From the IMG/VR virus record IMGVR_UViG_3300024349_000326, positions 1-64,000 of that record: a DNA stretch of 64,000 nt, one strand, 5' to 3'. The notes under the pieces are model-generated. The model searched no databases. It was not told where the DNA came from and saw nothing but the letters and a program-made list of their open reading frames with translations. Position 1 is the stretch's first letter. The number at the start of each line of letters is the position of its first letter. The DNA is from a virus. Made by a program: the position numbers and the translations under genes. Positions 6,320 through 61,716 of this stretch are shown one piece after another.

Positions 6320-8113
6320 ATGGCCGAAAGCCAAACGCTCAGCCTGATCGACAGCCGACATCCGGGCTACCTCTCCGGCATGACGGACTGGCGCAAGTGG
6401 CGCTTGACCTACGAAGGCGGCGACGACTTCCGCGAGTCCTACTTGGAGCGGTTTTCGACCCGCGAGGATCAGGAGGACTATGCCGTCCGCAAGGCAATCA
6501 CGCCCGTGCCGGCGTTCGCCAAAGCGGCGATCAACGACATTCGCAACGCGATTTATCAGCGCCTCAGGGATGTGGTTCGCAAGGGTGGCAGCGAGGTCTA
6601 CCAGGCCGCCGTCAACGGCAGCAACCTGGGTGTGGACCATCGCGGCTCGACCATGAACGCCTTTCTCGGCGTGAAGGTCTTGACCGAACTATTGGTCATG
6701 GGGCGGGTGGGCGTGTTTGTCGATCATCCGTTGATCCCGGCGGGTGCGACCTTGGCCAACGTCAGCCGGCCCTCGCCGTACCTGTACAAGTACGACATCG
6801 AAGACATCCTTTCCTGGACCTGCTCGAAGCCGGAAGCCCCGTCCGAGTTCCAGGCGATCCTGCTGCGCGACACAGTGATGCAGTACGACCAGTCCACGAT
6901 GTTGCCTTCGCTCTCGGTCGAGCGATACCGCTACATGTGGATCAACCCGGAGACGGGCAAGGTCAACTTGCAGTTCTACAACGTCAAGAAGGAGGTGGTG
7001 GACATCGCCGGGCTGCCGGGCGGCCCGATGCAACTGGAACTGGACCGCATCCCCTTCGTGCTCTTGGACATTGGCGGGAGCCTGATACGGGACGTATGCC
7101 AGCAACAAATCGCTCTGTTGAATCTCGGATCGAGCGACGTGAACTACGCCCTGCGGTCCAACTTCCCCTTCTACATCGAGCAGAAGGACATGCGGGCGAC
7201 GGGTGCCCACTTGAAGCACGCCGCCACGGAAGACGGGACATCCACCTCCGGCGGCCAAGGGGCAGCCGATACGAGCATCAAGGTCGGCGCGACGCACGGC
7301 CGCACCTACGACAAGGGAATGAATCCGCCGGCCTTCATCAATCCTTCGGCCGAGCCGTTGCGGGCGAGCCTGGAATTGCAGGACCGGCTCAAGCGGGACA
7401 TCCGCGAGTTGGTGAACCTGGCCGTGTCGAGTCTGGCGGTGCGGGTCTCGGCTGAGTCGAAGGCGATGGACAACCAGGGCCTTGAAGCGGGGTTGTCGTA
7501 CATCGGATTGTTGCTTGAAAGCGCCGAACGGCAGGTCGCCGAGTTCTGGGCCGCCTATGAAGAGCGGAACCTGAGCAAACGCGAAGTGGCGACGATCAAG
7601 TACCCGGAACGGTACAGTCTGAAGTCGGATGCCGACCGGATCAAGGAAGCGCAGGAATTGCAGAAGCTCATGGGCGCGGTCCCCGGTCGCCGGGTGAAGC
7701 GGGAGTTGGCCAAGGGGATCGTCCAGACACTCTTGGGCGGCAAGATCAGCATGGACGACCTGAGCGCGATCAACCGTGAGATCGACACAGCCCACTACAC
7801 CACCAGCGATCCGCAAACGATCATCCTGGCGGCGCAGGCGGGGCTGGTCGGCGAGAAGACAAGTTCCGTGGCCTTGGGCTTCGACGACGACGAGTATTTG
7901 GAGGCCCGCAAGGACCACGCGGAGCGCGTCACACGCATCGCCGAGTCCCAAGGAATGGAGAAGGGCGGCAGCGACCCGGCGGCGCGGGGCGTCCCAGACT
8001 TATCGGCCGATCCCAACGCCGGCAAGGAGGAAAAGGCGGCCAGCCGCAGTACCGATCTACGAGACACTACGGCCCAGCGCGTGCGCGGCCAAGGCCGCTT
8101 CTCAGGAGAGTAG
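6320..8113 (+). CDS. portal protein (candidate)
   Basis: 597 aa ORF immediately after terminase, GAGAGG SD; size and position as lambda gpB-like portal; acidic C-terminus. Confidence 0.6.
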   Translation: MAESQTLSLIDSRHPGYLSGMTDWRKWRLTYEGGDDFRESYLERFSTREDQEDYAVRKAITPVPAFAKAAINDIRNAIYQRLRDVVRKGGSEVYQAAVNGSNLGVDHRGSTMNAFLGVKVLTELLVMGRVGVFVDHPLIPAGATLANVSRPSPYLYKYDIEDILSWTCSKPEAPSEFQAILLRDTVMQYDQSTMLPSLSVERYRYMWINPETGKVNLQFYNVKKEVVDIAGLPGGPMQLELDRIPFVLLDIGGSLIRDVCQQQIALLNLGSSDVNYALRSNFPFYIEQKDMRATGAHLKHAATEDGTSTSGGQGAADTSIKVGATHGRTYDKGMNPPAFINPSAEPLRASLELQDRLKRDIRELVNLAVSSLAVRVSAESKAMDNQGLEAGLSYIGLLLESAERQVAEFWAAYEERNLSKREVATIKYPERYSLKSDADRIKEAQELQKLMGAVPGRRVKRELAKGIVQTLLGGKISMDDLSAINREIDTAHYTTSDPQTIILAAQAGLVGEKTSSVALGFDDDEYLEARKDHAERVTRIAESQGMEKGGSDPAARGVPDLSADPNAGKEEKAASRSTDLRDTTAQRVRGQGRFSGE

Positions 8114-38737: not shown

Positions 38738-39973
38738 GTGGCATTCCGTACTATGCAGCCTTTCTTCGAGCAAGACGACCTGAGCCTTTATTGCGGCGAT
38801 CTCCGCGAGGTGCTGCCGACATTGCCCGAGGCGTCGGTGGACTTCGTGTGTACTGATCCGCCCTACGGCCTCAGCTTCATGGAGAAGGACTGGGACCACG
38901 AGGTTCCTGGACCTGAGTATTGGCGGGCCATCGCCCGCGTGTGTAAGCCAGGTGCCCTGCTGCTGGCGTTCGGCGGTACGCGGACCTATCACCGGCTCTG
39001 CTGCGCGATCGAGGATGCCGGATGGGAGATTCGGGACGCCTTGATGTGGCTATACGGGCAAGGAATGCCCAAATGCGGCGACATCGGCAAGCTGATCGAC
39101 AAGTCGAAAGGCGCAGAGCGCCAAGTCATTGGCGACAAGCTGGACCGTCCCGGCTACCACTTGCACGAGGGCAAAGGAAACGGGTGTTACGGTGGTGGCA
39201 GTGGACTTCACGCCCCTGGCACGGACGCCCGGCTTCGCGCTGCACAGATAACGGCTCCGGCCACTCCCGAGGCCGCGAAGTGGACCGGCTGGGCGATGGC
39301 CCTGAAGCCAGCCTGGGAACCCGTCGTGCTGGCGATGAAGCCGCTGGATGGCACGATTGCCCACAACGCCCTGACGTGGGGCGTGGCCGGCATGAACATC
39401 GACGGCTGCCGGATTGCTTGCGAGGGTGGCAGCCCCAGTCAGCAGCGCCGGCAAGGGGCCGTGCCCGTAGGCAATTACAACGGCTGGAACGTCCCGAGCC
39501 GTAACGGCTACGGCGACCAACGACCAGGTGAGACGCTTGGCCGATGGCCGGCGAATCTTGTGCTTGACGAGGATGCCGCCCGCCTTCTCGACGCCCAGAC
39601 CGGGACGCTCACCAGCGGCACTAACTGCGCCCGTACCAAGTCCGGTGACGGCTATCACGGTGGCATCGGCAAGGCGGGCGATATTCAGGTGAGCTACGGC
39701 GACTCGGGCGGGGCGAGCCGGTTCTTCTACTGTTCCAAGGCGACACGGAAGGAGCGCGGCGCAGGCAACGACCATCCTACGGTCAAGCCCCTGGCCCTCA
39801 TGGAATACCTGCTGACGTTGCTTTCGACCCCAGACGGCGGAGTGATTCTGGACCCGTTTGCCGGCAGTGGCACCACGCTCTTGGCCGCCAAGCGGCTTGG
39901 CCGCCGCTGCATCGGTGTCGAGTTGACCGAACACAACTGCGAGATCGCCCGAGGGAGATTGCATGTCGCTTGA
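38738..39973 (+). CDS. DNA methyltransferase (beta-class N6A/N4C; DPPY ... FxGxGTT order)
   Basis: TDPPYG (motif IV) near the N-terminus and DPFAGSGTT (motif I) near the C-terminus; GTG start (ATG alternative 38753); overlaps SNF2 gene by 11 nt. Confidence 0.8.
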   Translation: MAFRTMQPFFEQDDLSLYCGDLREVLPTLPEASVDFVCTDPPYGLSFMEKDWDHEVPGPEYWRAIARVCKPGALLLAFGGTRTYHRLCCAIEDAGWEIRDALMWLYGQGMPKCGDIGKLIDKSKGAERQVIGDKLDRPGYHLHEGKGNGCYGGGSGLHAPGTDARLRAAQITAPATPEAAKWTGWAMALKPAWEPVVLAMKPLDGTIAHNALTWGVAGMNIDGCRIACEGGSPSQQRRQGAVPVGNYNGWNVPSRNGYGDQRPGETLGRWPANLVLDEDAARLLDAQTGTLTSGTNCARTKSGDGYHGGIGKAGDIQVSYGDSGGASRFFYCSKATRKERGAGNDHPTVKPLALMEYLLTLLSTPDGGVILDPFAGSGTTLLAAKRLGRRCIGVELTEHNCEIARGRLHVA

Positions 39974-42041: not shown

Positions 42042-43004
42042 ATGAAGTATGTGCTGTTGGTCCTTACCCTGGTCTCGCTGGCCGTGGCTCCGGCGCTCGC
42101 CGGTGTCCCCGATGACTTGCAGCGTGTGAGCGTCACCATCAAGGCAGGCCGCGCCCAAGGCTCCGGCACTCTCGTGACCCGACAGGTGGGCGACGATACC
42201 GTGACGTTCATCTGGACGGCCGCCCACGTCGTCGATGGCTTGCGCACCACGCGCACGGTCGTGACGCCGCAGGGCACGCCTCGCATCGTTGTCGAATACA
42301 AGGACGCCGAAATCATCCAGGAGCGGCAACAGGACGGCCGCCGGGTGGGCGAGGTCAAATACGACTGCAAGATCATTAAGGTCAGTGACGCCGACTACGG
42401 CGAAGACTTGGCGGTGCTCATGGTCCGCTGCAAAGGGGCCTATCCGCTCAATGTCTGCGCCAAGTTCCACAAAGACCCGAATTACATTCCGCCCATCGGC
42501 GTCGATTTGAGCCATTGCGGCAGCCTCTTGGGCCAGTTTGGGGCCAACAGCTACACCACGGGCGTGCTCTCCCAAGTGGGCCGCACGCTGCCGATGAAGG
42601 GTGCCAATGTCAAGGTCTTCGATCAGGTCACGACCGTCTCGTTTCCCGGCTCGTCTGGCGGCGGCATGTACCTGAAAGACAATGGCCTGTACATCGGCAT
42701 GTTGACTCAGGGCGTGATGCAATTGCAGGGCTTCAACTTCATTGTCCCGGTGCGGCGCATCCATGCCTGGGCGAAGCAGTCGAAGATCGAGTGGGCCATC
42801 GACCCCACCGTACCGATGCCCAGCTTGAAGGAGATCGACGCGATCCCCGTGGAAGACGCCGGCCAATCGCCAGGCGGGTATCCCGACCGCAATCCGGCCG
42901 CCGGCCCCGACGAGCCGCCATCCTTCAAACCACCGTTCAACCTCGACAACGCCATCAACTGGGTCGAGCGACTGTTCACCCGCGCGGGGCGTCGGTCCTC
43001 TTGA
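42042..43004 (+). CDS. secreted trypsin-like (S1) serine protease
   Basis: Signal peptide; catalytic His in TAAHVV, Asp in DLAVLMV, Ser in FPGSSGGGMY. Confidence 0.65.
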   Translation: MKYVLLVLTLVSLAVAPALAGVPDDLQRVSVTIKAGRAQGSGTLVTRQVGDDTVTFIWTAAHVVDGLRTTRTVVTPQGTPRIVVEYKDAEIIQERQQDGRRVGEVKYDCKIIKVSDADYGEDLAVLMVRCKGAYPLNVCAKFHKDPNYIPPIGVDLSHCGSLLGQFGANSYTTGVLSQVGRTLPMKGANVKVFDQVTTVSFPGSSGGGMYLKDNGLYIGMLTQGVMQLQGFNFIVPVRRIHAWAKQSKIEWAIDPTVPMPSLKEIDAIPVEDAGQSPGGYPDRNPAAGPDEPPSFKPPFNLDNAINWVERLFTRAGRRSS

Positions 43005-43275: not shown

Positions 43276-44589
43276 ATGAAGCTGACCAAGAAGAAGGTTG
43301 AGAAGATCAAACAGGCCATCACGGGTGGCGTCACGCAGCCGGACATCGCCAAACGGTTTAAGGTCAGTCGCTCCATCGTGTCGGACATCGCCACAGGCCG
43401 TGTCCACAAGGACGTGGAATGGCCCGGTGGGGAAGCGCCGACACCCAAGCGGGCCGGCGGTCAGCACAAGAATATCCCGGACTACGACCCGACCGACAAG
43501 CGGATTCTGGAGTTGGAGGCCGAGATCGTTCACTTGACCGAGGAGCGGAACCGCGAGCGGCAGAAGGTCAAAGCCGGGGCGAAGATCGCCGGCCTCTTCA
43601 AGGCGGTGGTCGCGGAGATGGAACAGCGCATCAAGCCGTTCGACGCCCTACCGTCCATCTATCAACCCCGCCCCAAGGCACAGATTTCGGAGCATTGCGT
43701 CCTGCATCTGTCCGATTGCCACCATGACGCGGTGGTACGGCCAGAAGAGGTTGGTGGATTGGAAGAGCACAACTTCCCAATCTCTTGCGCCCGTGCCGAG
43801 CGGCTGGTGGATACAGTGATTGACTGGAGCCAAGACACGCTTGCTCCCAAGTTCCATTTCCCGGTGCTGTGGGTCTTGGCGTATGGCGATTTCACCAGTG
43901 GCGAGATTCATGGGGCGGCGGAACGCTCTTACTATCGGAATACGTTCCGCAACTGCCTTGCTATCGGTCAGTTGCACGCCCTGATGCTGCGAGATTTCGC
44001 GCCGCACTTCGAGCGGGTCAACGTCTTGTACCTCTCCGGGAACCACGGGCGGCGGACGCCCAAGAAAGAGTTTGCCGGCGCGCACAACAACTTCGACTAT
44101 CTGGTGGCTGAGATCGCGCGGCTTCACTGTCGTGGCATTGAGAACATCAGTTTCCAGATTCCCGATGCGTGGTCGGCTAACGTCAACATTAACGGCGTCG
44201 GCTTCAACATCGCGCATGGTGACGACGTGCGAGGCAATCTGTCGATCCCGTTCTACGGGATGGTGCGACGGCAGAAAGGACTTGTGGCCCTCGGGGCGGC
44301 GGCCGGCACGCAACGCTGCCGCTACTTCGTCATGGGCCATCATCACGTCGCTTCGACGCTCTCGGACATCGACGGTGAGTTGTTGGTCAACGGGGCATGG
44401 GTGGGGACCGATGCCTATTCCTACAACTCGTTCAGTGGGTACAGGGAGCCGGCCCAATGGTTCCACGGCTGCAATCCCAAGTACGGGATTTCATGGAGGT
44501 TGAACGTCAAGTTGCGGCATGAGGCCGAGAAGAACGGCCCGAAGCGCTATTGCATCGACGGCGGCCGGGAGGTCGGGCCGTTGCGATGA
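43276..44589 (+). CDS. HTH-domain protein fused to calcineurin-like metallophosphoesterase
   Basis: N-terminal VTQPDIAKRFKVSRSIVSDIATGR HTH; phosphoesterase motifs HLSDCHH, VLAYGDFTSGE, LSGNHG, IAHGDD, GHHH. Confidence 0.7.
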   Translation: MKLTKKKVEKIKQAITGGVTQPDIAKRFKVSRSIVSDIATGRVHKDVEWPGGEAPTPKRAGGQHKNIPDYDPTDKRILELEAEIVHLTEERNRERQKVKAGAKIAGLFKAVVAEMEQRIKPFDALPSIYQPRPKAQISEHCVLHLSDCHHDAVVRPEEVGGLEEHNFPISCARAERLVDTVIDWSQDTLAPKFHFPVLWVLAYGDFTSGEIHGAAERSYYRNTFRNCLAIGQLHALMLRDFAPHFERVNVLYLSGNHGRRTPKKEFAGAHNNFDYLVAEIARLHCRGIENISFQIPDAWSANVNINGVGFNIAHGDDVRGNLSIPFYGMVRRQKGLVALGAAAGTQRCRYFVMGHHHVASTLSDIDGELLVNGAWVGTDAYSYNSFSGYREPAQWFHGCNPKYGISWRLNVKLRHEAEKNGPKRYCIDGGREVGPLR

Positions 44590-44806
44590 AGGGAATCCCA
44601 TTGACGAGGGGCAAAGAGGCCCTGGTGGACGACCAGGACTACGACTACCTGATGCAGTGGAAGTGGTCGTGTGGTAAGCGCGGCTAGCCCACCGCGGGAA
44701 GACCATGTATCTCGGCTTGTTTGACAGCAAGATCGAGGCAGCCCGAGCCTACAACGAAGCGGCCCCCAGGTACTTCGGTGAGTTTGCCGCGCTGAATCCC
44801 GTTTAG
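44586..44806 (+). pseudogene. decayed HNH-AP2 homing endonuclease (N-terminal and AP2 pieces in different frames, HNH core missing)
   Basis: Frame A: MKGIPLTRGKEALVDDQDYDYLMQWKWSCGKRG* ; frame +1: ...HRGKTMYLGLFDSKIEAARAYNEAAPRYFGEFAALNPV*. Both match the termini of the intact HNH-AP2 protein at 53649-54113. Confidence 0.55.
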
Positions 44807-44815
44807 GAGATCAAC

Positions 44816-44989
44816 ATGCCAGTGCATCGAACCACAAGGAACGGCAAGCCGGCGTTTCAGTACGGCACCACAGGTGCCAAGTACACCTACAAGCCTGGCA
44901 ATACAGCGAGCCGCGAGGCCGCCGAGAAGAAGGCCATCAAGCAGGCCCTTGCCATTGCGCGCCGCACGGGGAAGCCTGCCCACCTGTAG
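44816..44989 (+). CDS. small protein (57 aa)
   Basis: Strong SD AGGAG 7 nt upstream; MPVHRTTRNGKPAFQYGTTGAKYTYKPGNTASREAAEKKAIKQALAIARRTGKPAHL. Confidence 0.45.
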   Translation: MPVHRTTRNGKPAFQYGTTGAKYTYKPGNTASREAAEKKAIKQALAIARRTGKPAHL

Positions 44990-45004
44990 ACCTGCGAGAC
45001 GCTT

Positions 45005-45205
45005 ATGACCTCATGCACCATCGAGCACCACCGGGACGGCGAGTGCATCGAGAAGTGGAACGTCACGGAGGAAATGATTCAACGTGACGGCGACACGGCA
45101 CGAGTCGTCTTTCCCGTGGGGCAGATTGTCCTGGCCACCTATGACGAACTGCACTTTTGCCTTAGCGACGGGCTGAACGTTCTGAGCGAGGTCCAACAAC
45201 GGTGA
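45005..45205 (+). CDS. hypothetical small protein
   Basis: 66 aa ORF in tight array of small early genes. Confidence 0.4.
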   Translation: MTSCTIEHHRDGECIEKWNVTEEMIQRDGDTARVVFPVGQIVLATYDELHFCLSDGLNVLSEVQQR

Positions 45206-45420
45206 AGTATCGCGGCCTCTTTATCGGTGGAGCTATCGACGGGCAGGAGCGTGTCCTAGTGCATCGCAATCGCTACATCGGGATGCGCGACCAGCCCCAG
45301 TGCGTTTATCGGCTGCTGTTTGCCTTTGGCGAACCGCACACGCTGGTCTACTCGTTGTACGGCGTCGAAGAAACCCTGAATCGGCTGTGGCACCGCTACT
45401 CAGGAGAAGACCATGCGTAA
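45202..45420 (+). CDS. hypothetical small protein
   Basis: ATGA-type overlap with the upstream gene. Confidence 0.4.
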   Translation: MKYRGLFIGGAIDGQERVLVHRNRYIGMRDQPQCVYRLLFAFGEPHTLVYSLYGVEETLNRLWHRYSGEDHA

Positions 45421-45748
45421 GCTGGATCAGTTTTATGACCTGCTGCGGCTCGTCGCGCACAAAGACCCTTGGAGCGAGCAGGTGGAGTTCATGCTGCTCC
45501 ACCACGTCAGCGGCAAGCCGCGAACGATCTGCGGCCTGCTGCAATTCACCGAGGTTCCTGAAGGTGCCCAGGTCAACCCGACCTTCTGCCTCTACGGCCC
45601 CGAGGCCCAGGAACTCATGGACATGCTCTGGAACTGCGGGCTGCGACCCACCCAGAGCCAGAGCAGCGCCGGGCAACTGGACGCCGTGGAACGTCACTTG
45701 GCCGACATGCGGGCCATCGCCTTCAACAAGCTGGAGATCAAGCCTTGA
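45413..45748 (+). CDS. hypothetical protein
   Basis: 111 aa, overlaps neighbours by 8 and 4 nt. Confidence 0.45.
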   Translation: MRKLDQFYDLLRLVAHKDPWSEQVEFMLLHHVSGKPRTICGLLQFTEVPEGAQVNPTFCLYGPEAQELMDMLWNCGLRPTQSQSSAGQLDAVERHLADMRAIAFNKLEIKP

Positions 45749-45987
45749 GCAAGTTGGTCTGGTACTTCTGGCAACTGTTCCCCTGCACCTACCGGACTTT
45801 CTACGGCGACGACCTCGGCCGGATTCACTTCGCCGTGTGGAAGATGTGGTTCGGCCACTGTTATCGCGTCAACGACGTGATCGTGGACACGTTCACCACC
45901 GTGTTGGACGACATCTTGCGTCTCTTGGACGCGCTGTGTGCGGCCAACTGGACCCCCGAGTGCAGCGGCGAGTGCCGCAGCAAGTAG
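45745..45987 (+). CDS. hypothetical Trp/Cys-rich small protein
   Basis: 80 aa; C-terminal CSGECRSK. Confidence 0.4.
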   Translation: MSKLVWYFWQLFPCTYRTFYGDDLGRIHFAVWKMWFGHCYRVNDVIVDTFTTVLDDILRLLDALCAANWTPECSGECRSK

Positions 45988-46011
45988 CCCCGTCCTCAAC
46001 AGGAGACACCC

Positions 46012-46194
46012 ATGCCCGCCGACGACCTGCGCTATCTTGAGCTATCCGAAGATCGGGACGACGACTTCGAGGATGAAGACGACTTCGACGACGATTACGA
46101 CCCGTACCTCGACGACCCAGATGACGAAGATTTCGACGACGACTGGGCGGACGAAGACGAGGACTGGGAAGACGACGAAGACGAGGACGAATAG
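46012..46194 (+). CDS. poly-acidic 60-aa protein (DNA-mimic anti-restriction / nuclease-inhibitor candidate)
   Basis: About 60 % Asp/Glu (DDDFEDEDDFDDDYDPYLDDPDDEDFDDDWADEDEDWEDDEDEDE), with interspersed aromatics. Confidence 0.5.
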   Translation: MPADDLRYLELSEDRDDDFEDEDDFDDDYDPYLDDPDDEDFDDDWADEDEDWEDDEDEDE

Positions 46195-46265
46195 TAGTCG
46201 AGCCACGATGCGCGGCTCACCGTGCCTATGACCTTCGACCGGCATCCTGACGAGGAAGACGCCTT

Positions 46266-47066
46266 ATGCCCATCTTTTGCGTGAGCGATTTGCATCTGTG
46301 CGACCGTGGCTACCGCGACAACTTCGCAGTGGAAGGCCGCGAAGCCCGCTTCCACAAGTTCCTGGACTACGTGGAGGCCGAGGGCGGCCAACTCTACGTC
46401 TTAGGCGATCTTTTCGACTGGTGGCAAGCCAACCTGAGTCGGTCGGTACGTGCCTATCAAGACCTGCTGACACGCATGGCGCACATGGGACCAGTTGGGG
46501 CCTTGTGGGTCGTCGGCAACCATGACAATGCCTTGACCGACTTTCTCGGCAGCGAGATCAGGCTGCGGGGCCTGGAATTGCCCGTCATCTCTCGGGCCTT
46601 CGAGGCGACCATCGGCGGCCGGCGGTTCGCCTTCCTCCACGGTCACGAGTCCGATCCATATTGCCGGGACATGAACCCCGGCACCGGCGAGATTACTGCG
46701 ATCATTTCCGGGCTGCTGGAAGACCGCAACCGAGGGCCATTCGATCGTCGCTCCCATGCCGTGGAAGACCAGTTTGTCGGCACGTTGGAAGGGGCCTTGA
46801 CCCTCTGGCGGAAGCTGACCCTTCAGCATGGCCGTCTGGACGAGATGCTCGATGGCGTGGAAAGCTACCGCAAGGAGGCCGGGGCCGACGTGGTGGTCTA
46901 CGGTCATACGCACGAGCCGGGGCATATCGGCGATTACCACTTCAACACGGGCACCTGGGCGCGAACCAACGACACCTTTGTGCGAATCAACGACGACGGC
47001 CGCACGGCCGTCTGGGAATGGCTGCCTAGCAACCGTCCGGCACTGTTTGCCCATGCGTTGCGATGA
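46266..47066 (+). CDS. calcineurin-like metallophosphoesterase
   Basis: VSDLHL, VLGDLFD, VVGNHD, FLHGHE, YGHTHE motifs. Confidence 0.75.
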   Translation: MPIFCVSDLHLCDRGYRDNFAVEGREARFHKFLDYVEAEGGQLYVLGDLFDWWQANLSRSVRAYQDLLTRMAHMGPVGALWVVGNHDNALTDFLGSEIRLRGLELPVISRAFEATIGGRRFAFLHGHESDPYCRDMNPGTGEITAIISGLLEDRNRGPFDRRSHAVEDQFVGTLEGALTLWRKLTLQHGRLDEMLDGVESYRKEAGADVVVYGHTHEPGHIGDYHFNTGTWARTNDTFVRINDDGRTAVWEWLPSNRPALFAHALR

Positions 47067-48266: not shown

Positions 48267-48755
48267 ATGAGACAGCGGTATCGTCCTATTCCGAAGCCGA
48301 CAGGAGCCGACACCGAGCGATTCTGGTCTAAGGTGGATCGGCGTGCTCCCAATGAGTGCTGGCCGTGGATTGCTTCGCGCCAAGACGGCGGCCGTGGAAT
48401 GATCCGTCTTGCTCGGCGTTTGTACAAGGCTCCGCGTGTCGCCTACCTGCTTGCCACAGGTAGCGATCCTGGGCAACAAGACGTTTGCCACACTTGCGAC
48501 AACCCTGCCTGCTGCAATCCGAAGCATCTCTGGCTCGGAACTCGTGCTGAAAACAACGATGACCGGGATGCAAAGGGTCATCAGGTCGCCTTTCAGGGTG
48601 AAAGGCATCCTAACGCCATTCTGACGGAGCCGCAGGTCCGGCAGATTCTCGGATCGAATCTGACGAACGTGTACCTGGCATCGGTTTACGGCGTGTCGCA
48701 ATGCACCGTTTCGGCAATCCGGCATCGTCGCCTCTGGAGGCATGTCTGTGTCTAA
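48267..48755 (+). CDS. HNH homing endonuclease (HNH_3 type), paralog of 37655 gene
   Basis: CWPW...RVAY...DVCHTCDNPACCNPKHLWLGTRAEN. Confidence 0.8.
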   Translation: MRQRYRPIPKPTGADTERFWSKVDRRAPNECWPWIASRQDGGRGMIRLARRLYKAPRVAYLLATGSDPGQQDVCHTCDNPACCNPKHLWLGTRAENNDDRDAKGHQVAFQGERHPNAILTEPQVRQILGSNLTNVYLASVYGVSQCTVSAIRHRRLWRHVCV

Positions 48756-53648: not shown

Positions 53649-54113
53649 ATGGCAACCATTGCACTTCTCAACACCGCTTCAGAGGCAATTGTCAGCCCGG
53701 AGGACGTGAACCTTCTCCGGGCTTGGAACTGGTCGCTCAACGGCGGGTACGTATCGCGCGGCACCCGTCGCGCCGGTAAGTACCGCCGCGTAATGATGCA
53801 CCGGGTTATTGCGCGCCGCAGTGGTCAGAAGATCGCCGGAAGAGAGATCGACCATATCAACCGCAATCCCTTAGACAACCGCCGCAGCAACCTCCGTGCT
53901 GTCTCCAAGAGCGTTAATCAGCACAACGCAGGTGCTCGCCACGATTCAAGTACGGGCCATCGTGGAATCACACGGCGCACGGGACGAGACACCCTGGTGG
54001 TCCGAATCCAAGTTGATAACAAGCGTGAATACATCGGCGACTATTCCACCCTTGAGGCAGCGCTTGCCGCTCGCACCGCAGCAGAGAGGAGACTTCTGAA
54101 TGGCAAAGCGTGA
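53649..54113 (+). CDS. HNH endonuclease with AP2 DNA-binding domain (intact copy)
   Basis: LLRAWNWSLNGGYVSRG...YRRVMMHRVI...IDHINRNPLDNRRSNLRAVSKSVNQHN (HNH) and ...REYIGDYSTLEAALAARTAAERRLLNG (AP2-like). Confidence 0.75.
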   Translation: MATIALLNTASEAIVSPEDVNLLRAWNWSLNGGYVSRGTRRAGKYRRVMMHRVIARRSGQKIAGREIDHINRNPLDNRRSNLRAVSKSVNQHNAGARHDSSTGHRGITRRTGRDTLVVRIQVDNKREYIGDYSTLEAALAARTAAERRLLNGKA

Positions 54114-60734: not shown

Positions 60735-60976
60735 TCTACCACGGCAAACACGGCGACGAGTATTGGCTGGCCGACACGCCCGAACGGCTGGAAGCGGCAA
60801 TGCGCACGCTGTTCGCCCGGCTCGATGAATGGGGCTGCTACGAGGACGACGAGGAAGGTATCGCTGAAGCCCGAGGCGGCGACTTCCAAGCCATCAAATG
60901 GATTCTCCAACGCCGCCAAGACTACGAATACGAAGGCTGGGACTTAGAGGAAGCGACTGATCCATGCACACCCTGA
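60722..60976 (+). CDS. acidic hypothetical protein
   Basis: 84 aa; EWGCYEDDEEGIAE, EYEGWDLEEATD. Confidence 0.4.
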   Translation: MRILIYHGKHGDEYWLADTPERLEAAMRTLFARLDEWGCYEDDEEGIAEARGGDFQAIKWILQRRQDYEYEGWDLEEATDPCTP

Positions 60977-61716
60977 TTAACACCGACTGTCTCGACTACC
61001 TCAACGGCAGCTCGCAGACTTGGACGACCTGCTTTTGCGATCCGCCGGACAATATCGGTCTGGGCTACGAGACCTACAAGGACAGGCTGCCCGACGAGCA
61101 ATACGTGGGCCTGCTGGAAACTTGGCTGCACCTATTCGTCCACAAAGCAAAGACTGTCTGGTTCAGCTTCAACGCAAAGTGGACCTTCGAGGTCGGCCGC
61201 ATCGTGGCCGAAATGGTGCGGCGCACCAGCGGCTTGGAGGCCAAGCCCTGCGTCCAGACCTTCACTTTCGGGCAGCATTGCCACCACGATCTGGGAAACA
61301 ATCACCGCCCACTGCTGCGACTGCGTTGGTTTGACGCCCCGCTACGGCCCGACGCCATCCGCGTCCCCAGTTGGCGGCAGGAGAACGGCGACAAGCGGGC
61401 CGACCCGCGCGGCCGGGTGCCTGGCGACGTATTTGACTTCACGCGCGTGGTCGGCAACAGCAAGCAGCGCCGCCCCTGGCACCCGACGCAACTCAACGAG
61501 GGCCTGGTCGAGCGCTGCGTGAAGTTCACCACGCCGGAGGGCGAGTCGGTTCTGGACCCGTTTGGCGGGACAGGCACGACGCTTCGCGTCTGCCGGCCGC
61601 TGGGCTACCCCTGCACCCTAATCGAGATCGACAAGGGCTACTGCGCCGAGATCGTCAAAGAGCACGGCATGGTCCGCAGCGAGTACATCCATCGTGCTCT
61701 GTGGGAGGTCGAGTGA
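60964..61716 (+). CDS. DNA methyltransferase (beta-class, DPPD/N ... FGGTGTT)
   Basis: LINTDCLDYL (motif X), FCDPPDN (motif IV variant), VLDPFGGTGTT (motif I). Confidence 0.7.
   Translation: MHTLINTDCLDYLNGSSQTWTTCFCDPPDNIGLGYETYKDRLPDEQYVGLLETWLHLFVHKAKTVWFSFNAKWTFEVGRIVAEMVRRTSGLEAKPCVQTFTFGQHCHHDLGNNHRPLLRLRWFDAPLRPDAIRVPSWRQENGDKRADPRGRVPGDVFDFTRVVGNSKQRRPWHPTQLNEGLVERCVKFTTPEGESVLDPFGGTGTTLRVCRPLGYPCTLIEIDKGYCAEIVKEHGMVRSEYIHRALWEVE

Follow-up and report, generated by a model that had tools for sequence, protein, structure and literature searches.

The 60-aa protein acid60, encoded in the 64,000-nt stretch of viral DNA that we analysed (the window), is an extremely acidic protein of an accessory gene and is predicted to be unfolded. 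Our leading reading, which we hold tentatively and with a little less than even confidence, is that acid60 is expressed as an accessory protein of the phage, acts as an unfolded, tethered polyanion, competes with nucleic acid, and has a host target. It would probably compete for DNA- or RNA-binding sites as a flexible charged chain, not as a shaped mimic of DNA.

Composition and signals of acid60

The original prediction of a 60-aa poly-acidic reading frame at 46012-46194 was borne out to the exact coordinates, and acid60 is also present in the JGI gene calling. Its translation is MPADDLRYLELSEDRDDDFEDEDDFDDDYDPYLDDPDDEDFDDDWADEDEDWEDDEDEDE. Asp (28) and Glu (11) together make up 39 of the 60 residues, that is 65%, slightly more than the approximately 60% that had been claimed for it. 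The only basic residues are two Arg, with no Lys or His, and the net charge is -37. The six frames of the window contain 571 ORFs of 40 aa or more. When these were ranked by D/E content, acid60 came first and the next ORF followed at 26%; the mean of the 571 ORFs was 6.7%, which gives acid60 a z-score of 10.9. The composition of acid60 is far beyond chance.

Eight aromatic residues (3F, 3Y, 2W) are placed at positions 8, 19, 25, 29, 32, 41, 45, and 52. The aromatics had been described as periodic; they do recur, but at a spacing of 3-11 residues, which is not strict periodicity. The recurrence arises because the gene contains imperfect internal repeats with periods of 18 nt (DDFDDE) and 24 nt (DEDWEDDE). 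The ORF cannot be longer than given in Table 1, since an in-frame TAG is present at 45985-45987. No promoter was detected near acid60.

Table 1. Features of the acid60 region (positions in the window)
Feature	Position	Strand	Remarks
Conserved exonuclease	43276-44589		Left border of the cassette
Variable cassette of small accessory genes (p57, p66, p72, p111, p80, acid60)	44590..46265	+	Gene-order comparison
p80, conserved 80-aa protein	45745..45987	+	Directly 5' of acid60; usual left-hand neighbour
Shine-Dalgarno AGGAGA	46001..46006	+	5 nt 5' of acid60 ATG
acid60 CDS, hyper-acidic 60-aa protein	46012..46194	+	ATG start, TAG TAG stop; stop codon included
N-terminal conserved linear motif, acid60 residues 1-20 (MPADDLRYLELSEDRDDDFE)	46012..46071	+	Proposed anchor; family alignments, MPE fusions
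acid60 internal repeat, period 18	46060-46094
Asp-rich tail, acid60 residues 21-60	46072..46191	+	F/Y/W every 3-9 residues
DPY[LF]D motif, acid60 residues 30-34			Within the Asp-rich tail
acid60 internal repeat, period 24	46135-46188
Calcineurin-like metallophosphoesterase (MPE), 266 aa	46266..47066	+	PF00149, E = 8e-14; 71 nt 3' of acid60; candidate functional partner

Selection on the reading frame

Three further ORFs overlap acid60, at 45938-46231 on the plus strand and at 46042-46245 and 46095-46391 on the minus strand. They are mirror artefacts, because none of the six frames is closed in the GAC-rich stretch. The same openness, together with the repetitive sequence of acid60 and its loss from most relatives, speaks for a functionless by-product, that is, a slippage-expanded GAC repeat that is open by chance and is carried along in a variable region. 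Comparison with the relatives leaves this explanation hardly credible. In alignments of acid60 with six relatives, differences piled up at codon position 3 (e.g. 19 of 29). Five of these comparisons allowed an estimate of dS, and their dN/dS was 0.09-0.32. From the position-3 excess and dN/dS of roughly 0.1-0.3, it follows that the D/E frame is under selection. The start codon, the Shine-Dalgarno sequence, the N-terminal motif, the DPYFD motif, and the aromatics are all conserved, and a GGAG or GGA motif is kept 5-9 nt 5' of the ATG in all relatives. The frame is kept through all length differences in the family, and none of its approximately 19 members is a frameshifted copy, although the repeats are slippage-prone. 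The family has also been kept while the identity of the MPE across acid60-bearing relatives goes from 91% down to 43%.

An element acting at the DNA or RNA level in place of a gene was also considered and rejected: there was no Rfam match and no enrichment of promoters or terminators, and the codon-position pattern is that of protein-level selection. Judged by these substitution patterns, acid60 is a real phage gene under purifying selection.

Relatives of acid60: conserved head and variable tail

About 19 distinct relatives of acid60, 35-128 aa in length, are encoded at the corresponding place in a single uncultured siphovirus-like lineage. They share the N-terminal motif P-x-E-x-P-E-[DE]-[WR]-D-D, with the consensus [ND]-D-L ... 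E-x-P-E-[DE]-[WR]-D-D, and this is followed by a tail that varies in length via in-frame repeat expansion. D/E content ranges from 43% to 76% and net charge from -14 to -93, and Asp is used more than Glu (44% vs 19% over the family). In one relative (L021), a single uninterrupted acidic run extends over 39 residues, almost all of them Asp. The C-termini are not conserved and are mostly D/E; acid60 itself ends in ...DEDEDE. A variable tail behind a conserved head is what would be expected if the tail needs charge density only.

acid60 is an accessory gene with a patchy distribution. It was present in 14 of 40 non-redundant related loci and absent from the other 26, and it was missing even where the MPE of the relative is 84-91% identical.

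Sequence searches gave no known relative. No match to acid60 was found in Pfam (E <= 0.01), PHROGs, or NCBIfam, by phmmer against the PDB at E <= 10, in a word-indexed search of 5.8 billion proteins, or by tblastn against GenBank phages, and megablast of the acid60 region against GenBank phages also gave no match. When acid60 was searched with phmmer against 1.84 billion representatives, there was again no match, and even the query's own entry was missing from the result. This means that the bias filter makes HMMER blind to the composition of acid60, and distant characterised relatives could be missed. The family alignment, used as the query of an hmmsearch, gave just two matches, a mis-called family member and an unrelated protein, and a scan of a genome collection for the DPYFD motif in an acidic context returned unrelated larger bacterial proteins only, with no prophage. 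The DNA polymerase of this phage shows at most 26% identity to any deposited phage. We also noticed that a 373-kb ENA contig, ERZ25039480 contig_43825, carries a related phage.

Predicted disorder and comparison with folded DNA mimics

acid60 is predicted to be unfolded. The AlphaFold model, made from the single sequence with no alignment, had a pLDDT of 56 and a pTM of 0.15 and contained no helix of four or more residues and no strand; low confidence of this kind, obtained without an alignment, fits disorder but does not prove it. V, I, L, and M make up 8% of the residues: four Leu and the initiator Met, none of them beyond residue 33. With a net charge per residue of -0.62, the protein lies deep on the disordered side in charge-hydropathy. 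These values, together with the D/E content, mean that no hydrophobic core is possible. The N-terminal motif is not helical either, because relatives carry prolines inside it.

Small acidic proteins of phages are often DNA mimics (PMC9836394; 10.1101/2025.06.06.658234), and the original prediction had compared acid60 with T7 Gp5.9, Ocr, and ArdA, which act by competing with DNA for a DNA-binding site. Ocr inhibits BREX and type I restriction-modification enzymes, while Gp5.9 inhibits RecBCD by binding the RecB arm, so that DNA ends are kept from binding. On such a reading, acid60 would be a folded, shaped mimic of dsDNA, dimeric and with carboxylates at phosphate-like spacing, that blocks type I restriction, BREX, or RecBCD. 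The small size, the very low pI, and the place among DNA-metabolism genes of the phage agree with it, and the length of acid60 (60 aa) is close to that of Gp5.9 (52 aa). The remaining evidence makes a shaped mimic extremely unlikely. Gp5.9 is a dimeric parallel coiled coil that is braced by an N-terminal beta-sheet (PMC9836394), whereas no helix or strand and no coiled-coil heptad pattern was predicted in acid60. Ocr has a compact helical fold that shows its carboxylates like bent B-DNA, a fold that acid60 is predicted to lack. More generally, Ocr, Gp5.9, and ArdA are folded dimers with a hydrophobic core and a fixed carboxylate geometry, in contrast to the predicted unfolded state of acid60. 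The compositions differ accordingly in both directions: D/E content is 65% in acid60 vs 29% in Ocr and 25% in Gp5.9, and V/I/L/M content is 8% vs 26-27%. Unlike the fixed-shape Ocr and Gp5.9, the relatives of acid60 vary almost four-fold in length, and this range, with the 39-residue acidic run, is incompatible with a fixed DNA-like shape.

Profile comparison of the acid60 family by hhalign gave a probability of 0.03% against T7 Ocr and of 0.5%, over 8 aligned columns, against Gp5.9. There was no Pfam match to Ocr or ArdA, the ArdA family gave no match in PHROGs or NCBIfam either, and the PDB held no sequence match at the threshold given above. As judged from sequence and profile comparison, acid60 is not a member of the Ocr, ArdA, or Gp5.9 family. 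Thus the proposed likeness to these proteins holds for size, and it fails for composition, fold, and sequence or profile similarity. The wider idea of a DNA mimic stands in part: competition with nucleic acid is still the most plausible mechanism, while a shaped copy of dsDNA is contradicted by the predicted disorder and by the composition.

Comparison with disordered polyanions and SSB tails

By analogy of function, the closest counterparts of acid60 would be the middle domain of Gp44, a host-takeover protein of Bacillus phage SPO1, and the C-terminal region of the RNA polymerase delta subunit. Residues 56-122 of Gp44 were found to be disordered by NMR and MD, were proposed to mimic single-stranded DNA, and bind the beta and beta' subunits of RNA polymerase (PMC8208478). 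We checked the composition of this segment, which is 57% D/E with no basic residue. acid60, at 65% D/E with two Arg, is phage-encoded like Gp44 and fits the composition of the polyanion class (40 residues or more, a D/E content from about 55% upwards, and hardly any basic residues). The two differ in that Gp44 is rich in Glu and Val with 4% aromatics, whereas acid60 is rich in Asp with 13% aromatics. Moreover, Gp44 is a 237-aa protein in which the acidic segment is flanked by a folded DNA-binding domain on one side and a C-terminal region on the other, whereas acid60 is free-standing. There is no sequence relationship between the acid60 family and Gp44 (hhalign probability 0.06%).

The C-terminal region of Bacillus subtilis delta (residues 91-173) has a net charge of -47, is tethered by the N-terminal domain, and is in steric and electrostatic competition with nucleic acids for the main channel of RNA polymerase (PMC7749165). 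This is the same logic of a tether and a polyanion that we propose for acid60; delta is set beside acid60 by function and not by sequence, and homology is not claimed. Delta is a cellular protein with a folded tether of 90 residues, while acid60 is phage-encoded and its putative tether is a motif of approximately 10-20 residues. It counts against our model that in Gp44 and delta alike the tether is a folded domain, while acid60 has only a short motif.

A different kind of acidic tail is that of SSB proteins. The tails of SSB and gp2.5 bind OB folds or partner proteins in competition with single-stranded DNA (PMC3936761, PMC10359462). They are disordered, as acid60 is predicted to be, and like acid60 they are acidic and aromatic-containing (Escherichia coli SSB, ...DFDDDIPF; T7 gp2.5); units of FDDD followed by an aromatic residue are common to them and acid60. 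acid60 could be imagined as a multivalent decoy of the SSB C-terminal tip, whose aromatic-DDD-aromatic units would saturate either the pockets in which repair and replication enzymes of the host receive the SSB tip, or else the OB-fold of SSB itself. acid60 contains DFDDDY and DFDDDW, its relatives contain WDDDF, WDDDW, and FDDDEF, and a 103-aa viral protein ends in ...PEEWDDDIPF, which joins the core of the family motif to a canonical SSB tip. We consider such a decoy improbable all the same. The SSB tip is defined by a C-terminal hydrophobic residue with a free carboxylate, but the C-termini of the acid60 family are not conserved and usually end in D/E. At 44% Asp and 11% aromatics, aromatic-DDD-aromatic units are expected by chance. 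In addition, SSB tips are attached to an OB-fold protein, and acid60 has no OB fold.

Genomic context

acid60 is located in a co-oriented, tightly packed module of genes for DNA replication and metabolism. When gene order was compared over 46 related loci, each small gene of the cassette was present or absent independently, and the same cassette in relatives also carries a C5 DNA methyltransferase, a PD-(D/E)XK endonuclease, and ClpP. A variable cassette of a DNA-metabolism module is the kind of site at which genes for host takeover and counter-defence are placed.

The neighbour p80 was present in 11 of the 14 loci with acid60 and in 9 of the 26 loci without it. Its 34 homologues are all hypothetical proteins, with invariant residues W6, Q10, P13, H28, W32, K33, W35, and C39. 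AlphaFold gave an alpha-beta3-alpha model of moderate confidence (pLDDT 70), and Foldseek with this model against PDB and BFVD gave nothing below E = 0.1. As a partner of acid60, p80 proved to be a dead end: the alignment was good, but the model was moderate and there was no fold match. p80 and acid60 share a frame, with the TAG and 24 nt between them. A joined product made by stop-codon read-through was rejected, because the frame relation fails in four of the relatives (L003, L011, L018, and L023).

Fusions of the head motif to the MPE

The MPE gene 3' of acid60 was found in all relatives, and its product has weak similarity to LpxH, YfcE, and PdeM. All members of the acid60 family that were found, those from MPE-independent motif scans included, share the strand of the MPE and lie 0-1 kb 5' of it, except on contigs that do not extend over this distance. 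In at least five contigs, the N-terminal motif of the family forms an in-frame N-terminal extension of the MPE itself. In L012 and L031/L350, the motif P-x-E-x-P-E-[DE]-W-D-D continues in frame into the MPE with no intervening stop (MIHVPIQARPVEQPEEWDDEPCVAG...EKA-MPIFCISDLH). In L383 (MLPHQPVVEQPEEWDDDWNARCEEDLDDKRGH-PFYAISDLH), the Met of the MPE itself has been lost, and the upstream ATG follows a strong Shine-Dalgarno sequence. L384 and L385 likewise have the head motif in frame with the MPE. The fusions occur in at least two separate sub-branches and in different samples, with the motif kept despite substitutions; in the fused forms the head motif is still there and the long acidic tail has been lost. 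Another small gene of the cassette, p57b, either overlaps the start of the MPE or is joined to it (L386), and it forms chimeras with the acid family in L023, L384, and L385.

The recurrence of the in-frame fusion makes the MPE a candidate partner of acid60, and the docking partner may thus be encoded by the phage rather than by the host. The fusion had no place in the original prediction, and it points to a possible phage-internal partner.

The fusions also bear on the role of acid60 itself, which might be a free-standing regulatory or adaptor subunit of the MPE and not an independent decoy, with the motif docking to the MPE or acting with it. The tail could then gate the substrate site as a pseudo-substrate, or steer the enzyme toward basic nucleic-acid-binding targets. 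We regard this as a lesser possibility, though one that deserves attention. The constant adjacency, the fusions in at least five contigs, and the behaviour of p57b all argue for it. Against this, the MPE is present in all relatives and acid60 is absent from 26 of the 40 loci, so that acid60 is not an obligatory subunit of the MPE, and the fused forms do without the long acidic tail. The net charge of the MPE is -10, which means that no global electrostatic attraction to acid60 would be at work. Adjacency seen in a single lineage does not count as independent evidence, neighbouring genes can fuse neutrally where genomes are compact, and the hyper-acidic ORFs of unrelated viral contigs described below do not adjoin an MPE. 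Charge complementarity was also dropped as a clue to the partner in general, given the acidic MPE and the fact that p57 (net +10), which alone among the neighbours is strongly basic, occurs whether or not acid60 is there.

The adjoining metalloenzyme and the preference for Asp over Glu in the family would suit another role, that of a cation sink or metal chaperone. Here poly-Asp would buffer or deliver Mg, Mn, Ca, or polyamines, for example to the dinuclear centre of the MPE; in a variant, acid60 would perturb the Mg or polyamine pools of the host. This is very unlikely, considering that ion binding needs neither a conserved N-terminal motif nor conserved aromatics, and that one small protein has a negligible capacity vs millimolar Mg. 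A precedent was not found in the literature.

Proposed mechanism of acid60

Returning to the tethered polyanion, we infer that the motif docks, that the protein competes with nucleic acid, and that its target belongs to the host, as follows. The N-terminal motif (residues approximately 1-20; E-x-P-E-[DE]-[WR]-D-D) would dock acid60 to a partner, and the Asp-rich, aromatic-punctuated tail would behave like a flexible strand of nucleic acid. The tail would fill the basic groove in which the bound protein, or one nearby, binds DNA or RNA, in electrostatic competition with nucleic acid, and the aromatics would give stacking or sticker contacts as the bases of single-stranded DNA do. The most likely target would be a nucleic-acid-binding protein of the host, i.e. 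a defence nuclease or the transcription or nucleoid machinery, and acid60 would then be a counter-defence or host-takeover factor.

If this is true, nucleic-acid-binding proteins would be jammed in a simpler and more evolvable manner, by a free-standing, unfolded polyanion that carries a short address motif and whose charge and reach repeat slippage could alter without any refolding. The fusion of the motif to the MPE gives a concrete handle on the partner of acid60. Should a defence system or RNA polymerase prove to be the target, the repertoire of anti-defence and host takeover would gain, with this family, a mechanism of a new type.

Hyper-acidic ORFs in unrelated viral contigs

As far as we are aware, the known DNA mimics of phages are folded, with a shape that copies DNA. 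Among the anti-defence proteins catalogued in EVADES, 11 are listed as DNA mimics, and the word 'disordered' occurs nowhere in the text of that paper. Standard homology tools are blind to proteins such as acid60, so that a class of them could be common and yet unannotated.

In unrelated viral contigs, we found at least 19 small ORFs in which a poly-D/E tail with Trp comes after a normal N-terminal part of 15-45 aa. We speculate, with considerable doubt, that free-standing, hyper-acidic, aromatic-punctuated disordered proteins constitute a widespread uncharacterised class of phage effectors. In such a class, the short, specific head would serve as an address and the slippage-tuned tail as a generic, sequence-independent competitor of nucleic acid, and in the lineage of acid60 the same head could instead bring an MPE to that address. 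The tails would strip nucleic acid from, or block, DNA- or RNA-binding proteins that serve defence or housekeeping in the host.

A linkage of such ORFs to the MPE was not borne out in the unrelated contigs, where an MPE-motif ORF was present in only 1 of the 19 retrieved stretches around them, at approximately 8.5 kb from the acidic ORF. A generic motif scan gave 20 such hyper-acidic ORFs among the first 120 matches listed.

Acid60 is a conserved gene under purifying selection

A 60-aa poly-acidic ORF had been proposed in the window, and it was present as described. The product of this gene, acid60, contains 28 Asp and 11 Glu (65% D/E), two Arg, no Lys or His, and eight aromatic residues. Among the 571 window ORFs of at least 40 aa, it was the sole hyper-acidic one (z-score 10.9), the runner-up having 26% D/E. 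AGGAGA is located 5 nt 5ʹ of the ATG, and the start is fixed by an in-frame TAG 24 nt upstream. The aromatics, previously called periodic, do recur, at intervals of 3-11 residues that result from the imperfect repeats making up the gene (DDFDDE, period 18 nt; DEDWEDDE, period 24 nt), but their spacing is not strictly periodic. Three long Thr/Arg-, Val- and Ser-rich ORFs overlapping acid60 were rejected as genes; the GAC-rich stretch is stop-free in every frame, thus they are mirror by-products.

Coordinates of the features discussed (window positions unless a related locus is named)
Feature	Position	Strand	Remark
acid60	46012-46194	+	hyper-acidic ORF; product MPADDLRYLELSEDRDDDFEDEDDFDDDYDPYLDDPDDEDFDDDWADEDEDWEDDEDEDE
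Overlapping ORF	45938-46231	+	not a gene
Overlapping ORF	46042-46245	-	not a gene
Overlapping ORF	46095-46391	-	not a gene
p80	45745-45987	+	strongly conserved, Trp/Cys-rich, 80 aa; 21 invariant columns
MPE	46266-47066	+	calcineurin-like metallophosphoesterase
Exonuclease	43276-44589		
Serine protease	42042-43004	+	trypsin/HtrA-like, 320 aa; PF13365 weak match, NCBIfam HtrA-like
DNA methyltransferase	38738-39973	+	phrog_67
DNA methyltransferase	60964-61716	+	phrog_67
HNH endonuclease	48267-48755	+	in replication module
HNH endonuclease	53649-54113	+	in replication module
p57b	L178:10231-10404		~57 aa, MNIAVTLQLDNMPDETDLEVVEDVIRRQAAEWLDLDRH...
p57b	L021:3853-4023		
p57b	L037:3158-3319		
p57b	L388:2358-2510		
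p57b-MPE fusion	L386:2309-3307		

Acid60 is also called in the 82-kb JGI metagenome contig to which the window belongs. Using the metallophosphoesterase gene (MPE) 71 nt downstream as a handle, we fetched 46 related viral loci; in 17 of them (14 after duplicate removal), a co-oriented hyper-acidic ORF was located no more than 2 kb upstream of MPE. Motif scans independent of MPE added the family members in loci L131, L152 and L231; where their contigs extend far enough, these too are in that slot. A GGAG-type Shine-Dalgarno sequence and ATG were kept in all copies of this acid family, and every length difference was in frame. When acid60 was compared with six relatives, most differences fell in codon position 3 (e.g. 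19 of 29), an excess that is robust although the codon alignment is somewhat ambiguous in low-complexity sequence. dN/dS was 0.09-0.32 in the five comparisons with estimable dS, and saturated against L003. The position-3 excess, the low dN/dS and the conserved start signals together indicate that the D/E frame of acid60 is translated and that selection on it is purifying. The reading as a junk repeat was rejected on this basis, and a functionless ORF is extremely unlikely.

Acid60 is predicted to be a disordered polyanion outside the Ocr, ArdA and Gp5.9 families

Acid-family proteins are 35-128 aa long, with 43-76% D/E, net charge of -14 to -93 and 5-16% F/W/Y; Lys and His are nearly absent, and Asp outweighs Glu (44% against 19%). 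The N-terminal consensus, or head, is [ND]-D-L ... E-x-P-E-[DE]-[WR]-D-D (MPADDLRYLELSEDRDDD in the window), and prolines inside it in several relatives argue for a linear motif rather than a helix. A central DPY[FL]D motif is kept in many members. The remainder is an acidic tail that grows and shrinks between members, and that of L021 has an unbroken acidic run of 39 residues, nearly all Asp.

DPYFD followed by acidic residues was also seen in unrelated larger bacterial proteins (genome loci L069-L101), such as DIRDPYFDEDDEYDF in ~660-aa proteins of Pseudomonadales and Azotimanducaceae MAGs and ADPYFDEDDDAPFDIDVP in ~880-aa proteins of Rhizobium. It may be an independent short linear motif there.

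AlphaFold, run without an alignment, gave acid60 a pLDDT of 56, a pTM of 0.15 and no secondary-structure elements. Its V/I/L/M content of 8% and net charge of -0.62 per residue preclude a hydrophobic core, and the protein is predicted to be an intrinsically disordered polyanion. A role as cation sink or metal chaperone is very improbable.

The original prediction likened acid60 to T7 Gp5.9, Ocr and ArdA. Ocr and Gp5.9, taken from the T7 record, have 29% and 25% D/E and 26-27% V/I/L/M, against 65% and 8% in acid60. Profile comparison of the acid family gave probabilities of 0.03% with Ocr and 0.5% with Gp5.9. Gp5.9 is a dimer whose hallmarks are a parallel coiled coil and an N-terminal beta-sheet (PMC9836394), and neither is present in the acid60 prediction. 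Because composition, profile scores and Gp5.9 features all differ, membership in the Ocr, ArdA or Gp5.9 groups was rejected, and a folded Ocr/Gp5.9-type mimic is hardly credible. What is left is the looser analogy with acidic proteins that compete with DNA.

Among proteins studied experimentally, the nearest analogues are disordered polyanions. Residues 56-122 of SPO1 Gp44 are disordered, bind RNA polymerase beta/beta' and are proposed to mimic single-stranded DNA (PMC8208478); we confirmed on the sequence that they contain 57% D/E and no basic residues, and profile comparison detected no sequence relationship between acid60 and Gp44. The C-terminal region of the B. subtilis RNA polymerase delta subunit, which carries a net charge of -47 and is tethered through the N-terminal domain, competes with nucleic acid inside the main channel of the polymerase (PMC7749165). 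The analogy drawn with acid60 concerns charge and predicted disorder.

In the best-supported model, which we favor tentatively, acid60 would act as a tethered polyanion whose N-terminal motif docks and whose Asp-rich tail, with its aromatic stickers, competes with nucleic acid for a basic groove. The likeliest target would be a host DNA- or RNA-binding protein, which would imply counter-defence or host takeover. A decoy of the SSB tip would suit the FDDDY and FDDDW units of acid60 and a 103-aa viral ORF (L309, L331) ending in ...FSIPEEWDDDIPF, i.e. PEEWDDDIPF, where the acid-family core PEEWDD is joined to the canonical SSB-type tip DDDIPF. The acid family, however, has no conserved C-terminal hydrophobic end, the defining feature, and this role is improbable.

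The head motif is recurrently fused to the metallophosphoesterase

Scanning viral contigs for the core PEEWDD[DE] returned acid-family members and also contigs in which the motif is in frame with MPE without an intervening stop. The fusion reads MIHVPIQARPVEQPEEWDDEPCVAG...EKA-MPIFCISDLH in L012 and L031/L350. In L383 it reads MLPHQPVVEQPEEWDDDWNARCEEDLDDKRGH-PFYAISDLH; the Met of MPE itself is gone and a strong Shine-Dalgarno sequence precedes the upstream ATG. The order in L384 and L385 is head motif, part of p57b, then MPE. The p57b gene, which is not in the window and whose product had no family match, overlaps the MPE start in L021, L178 and L388 and is fused to MPE in frame in L386. The 'acidic' ORF of L023 is a chimera of an acid-family head and a p57b C-terminus (...VTVEETAGGDS, compared with ...VDIEETAGGS in L231). 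The fused contigs came from different samples and at least two sub-branches, and the motif was kept despite substitutions.

This recurrence of in-frame fusions suggests that the head motif, p57b and MPE act together. Alternatively, the head could be an address able to carry either the polyanion or the MPE enzyme. MPE belongs to the generic PF00149 enzymes and resembles LpxH, YfcE or PdeM only weakly. That acid60 works with or on the adjacent MPE, as the fusions would allow, is the main rival to the tethered polyanion and is possible, if rather unlikely. A strict subunit model is opposed by the many relatives, the majority, that have MPE without acid60, by fused forms without a long acidic tail, and by the MPE net charge of -10.

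Trp-punctuated acidic ORFs in unrelated viruses

A generic scan of viral contigs for [DE]4-W-[DE]5 gave 119 match-containing ORFs among the matches listed, at least 20 of which were complete, small (37-147 aa) and hyper-acidic (47-73% D/E). One of the 20, L231, belongs to the acid60 lineage. The other 19 were from unrelated contigs with GC of 30-57% (L191, L194, L200, L205, L210, L216, L217, L224, L228, L229, L230, L232, L235, L255, L268, L285, L286, L293, L298), and their products have 15-45 N-terminal residues of normal composition followed by a poly-D/E tail with Trp. Only one of these 19 fetched stretches had an MPE-motif ORF, ~8.5 kb from the acidic one. Such small ORFs may form a broad, unannotated class. 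The neighbours checked mostly had no assigned function; one acidic ORF lies between ribonucleotide reductase and a DNA-binding protein.

No characterised free-standing phage protein of the acid60 type was found in the literature searched. The EVADES anti-defence catalogue has 11 DNA mimics, but the text of its paper nowhere uses the word 'disordered'. Acid60 is a plausible candidate for a known sort of protein, the acidic nucleic-acid competitors.

Acid60 lies in a variable cassette of a tailed phage

The contig encodes large terminase, portal, major head protein and tape measure of a tailed phage, together with helicase, primase, DNA polymerase A, ligase, two DNA methyltransferases and HNH endonucleases. 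Cultured relatives were not found among GenBank phages by nucleotide search of the region or DNA polymerase comparison. Nearly every relative retains the exonuclease and an MPE-ParB-p119 block, and between exonuclease and MPE is a cassette of small genes (p57, p66, p72, p111, p80 and acid60). These come and go independently even where MPE is 84-91% identical, and the cassette carries a C5 DNA methyltransferase, a PD-(D/E)XK endonuclease or ClpP in other relatives. Therefore, acid60 is accessory and belongs to a plastic part of the replication module, which fits a host-interaction role and does not prove it. No promoter, terminator or Rfam element was found flanking acid60.

Acid60 is usually 3ʹ of p80, which was present in 11 of 14 acid-positive and 9 of 26 acid-negative loci (Fisher p = 0.019, uncorrected for phylogeny). 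The predicted topology of p80 is alpha-beta3-alpha, and sequence and fold searches gave no recognisable family and no relative with known function. The two genes share a reading frame, parted by one TAG and 24 nt, a relation not kept in relatives.

With its two methyltransferase genes, the phage probably already counters restriction by self-methylation. Both HNH genes look like mobile homing endonucleases. The first and the DNA polymerase A gene overlap by 14 nt, at the 5ʹ end of the latter. The gene calls of L001, fetched from the window's own contig, do not include this HNH gene and leave ~480 nt (7253-7736) unassigned, which may be a calling gap; L002 lists a 162-aa HNH gene at the same place. 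The serine protease gene, just upstream of the replication module, is conserved in relatives.

The close relative L178 is on ENA ERZ25039480 contig_43825 (373,252 bp; phage region ~327-347 kb), and its phage is also a separate 87-kb contig in another sample. Either an integrated prophage, from which the host could be named, or assembly of a concatemer could account for the 373-kb contig.
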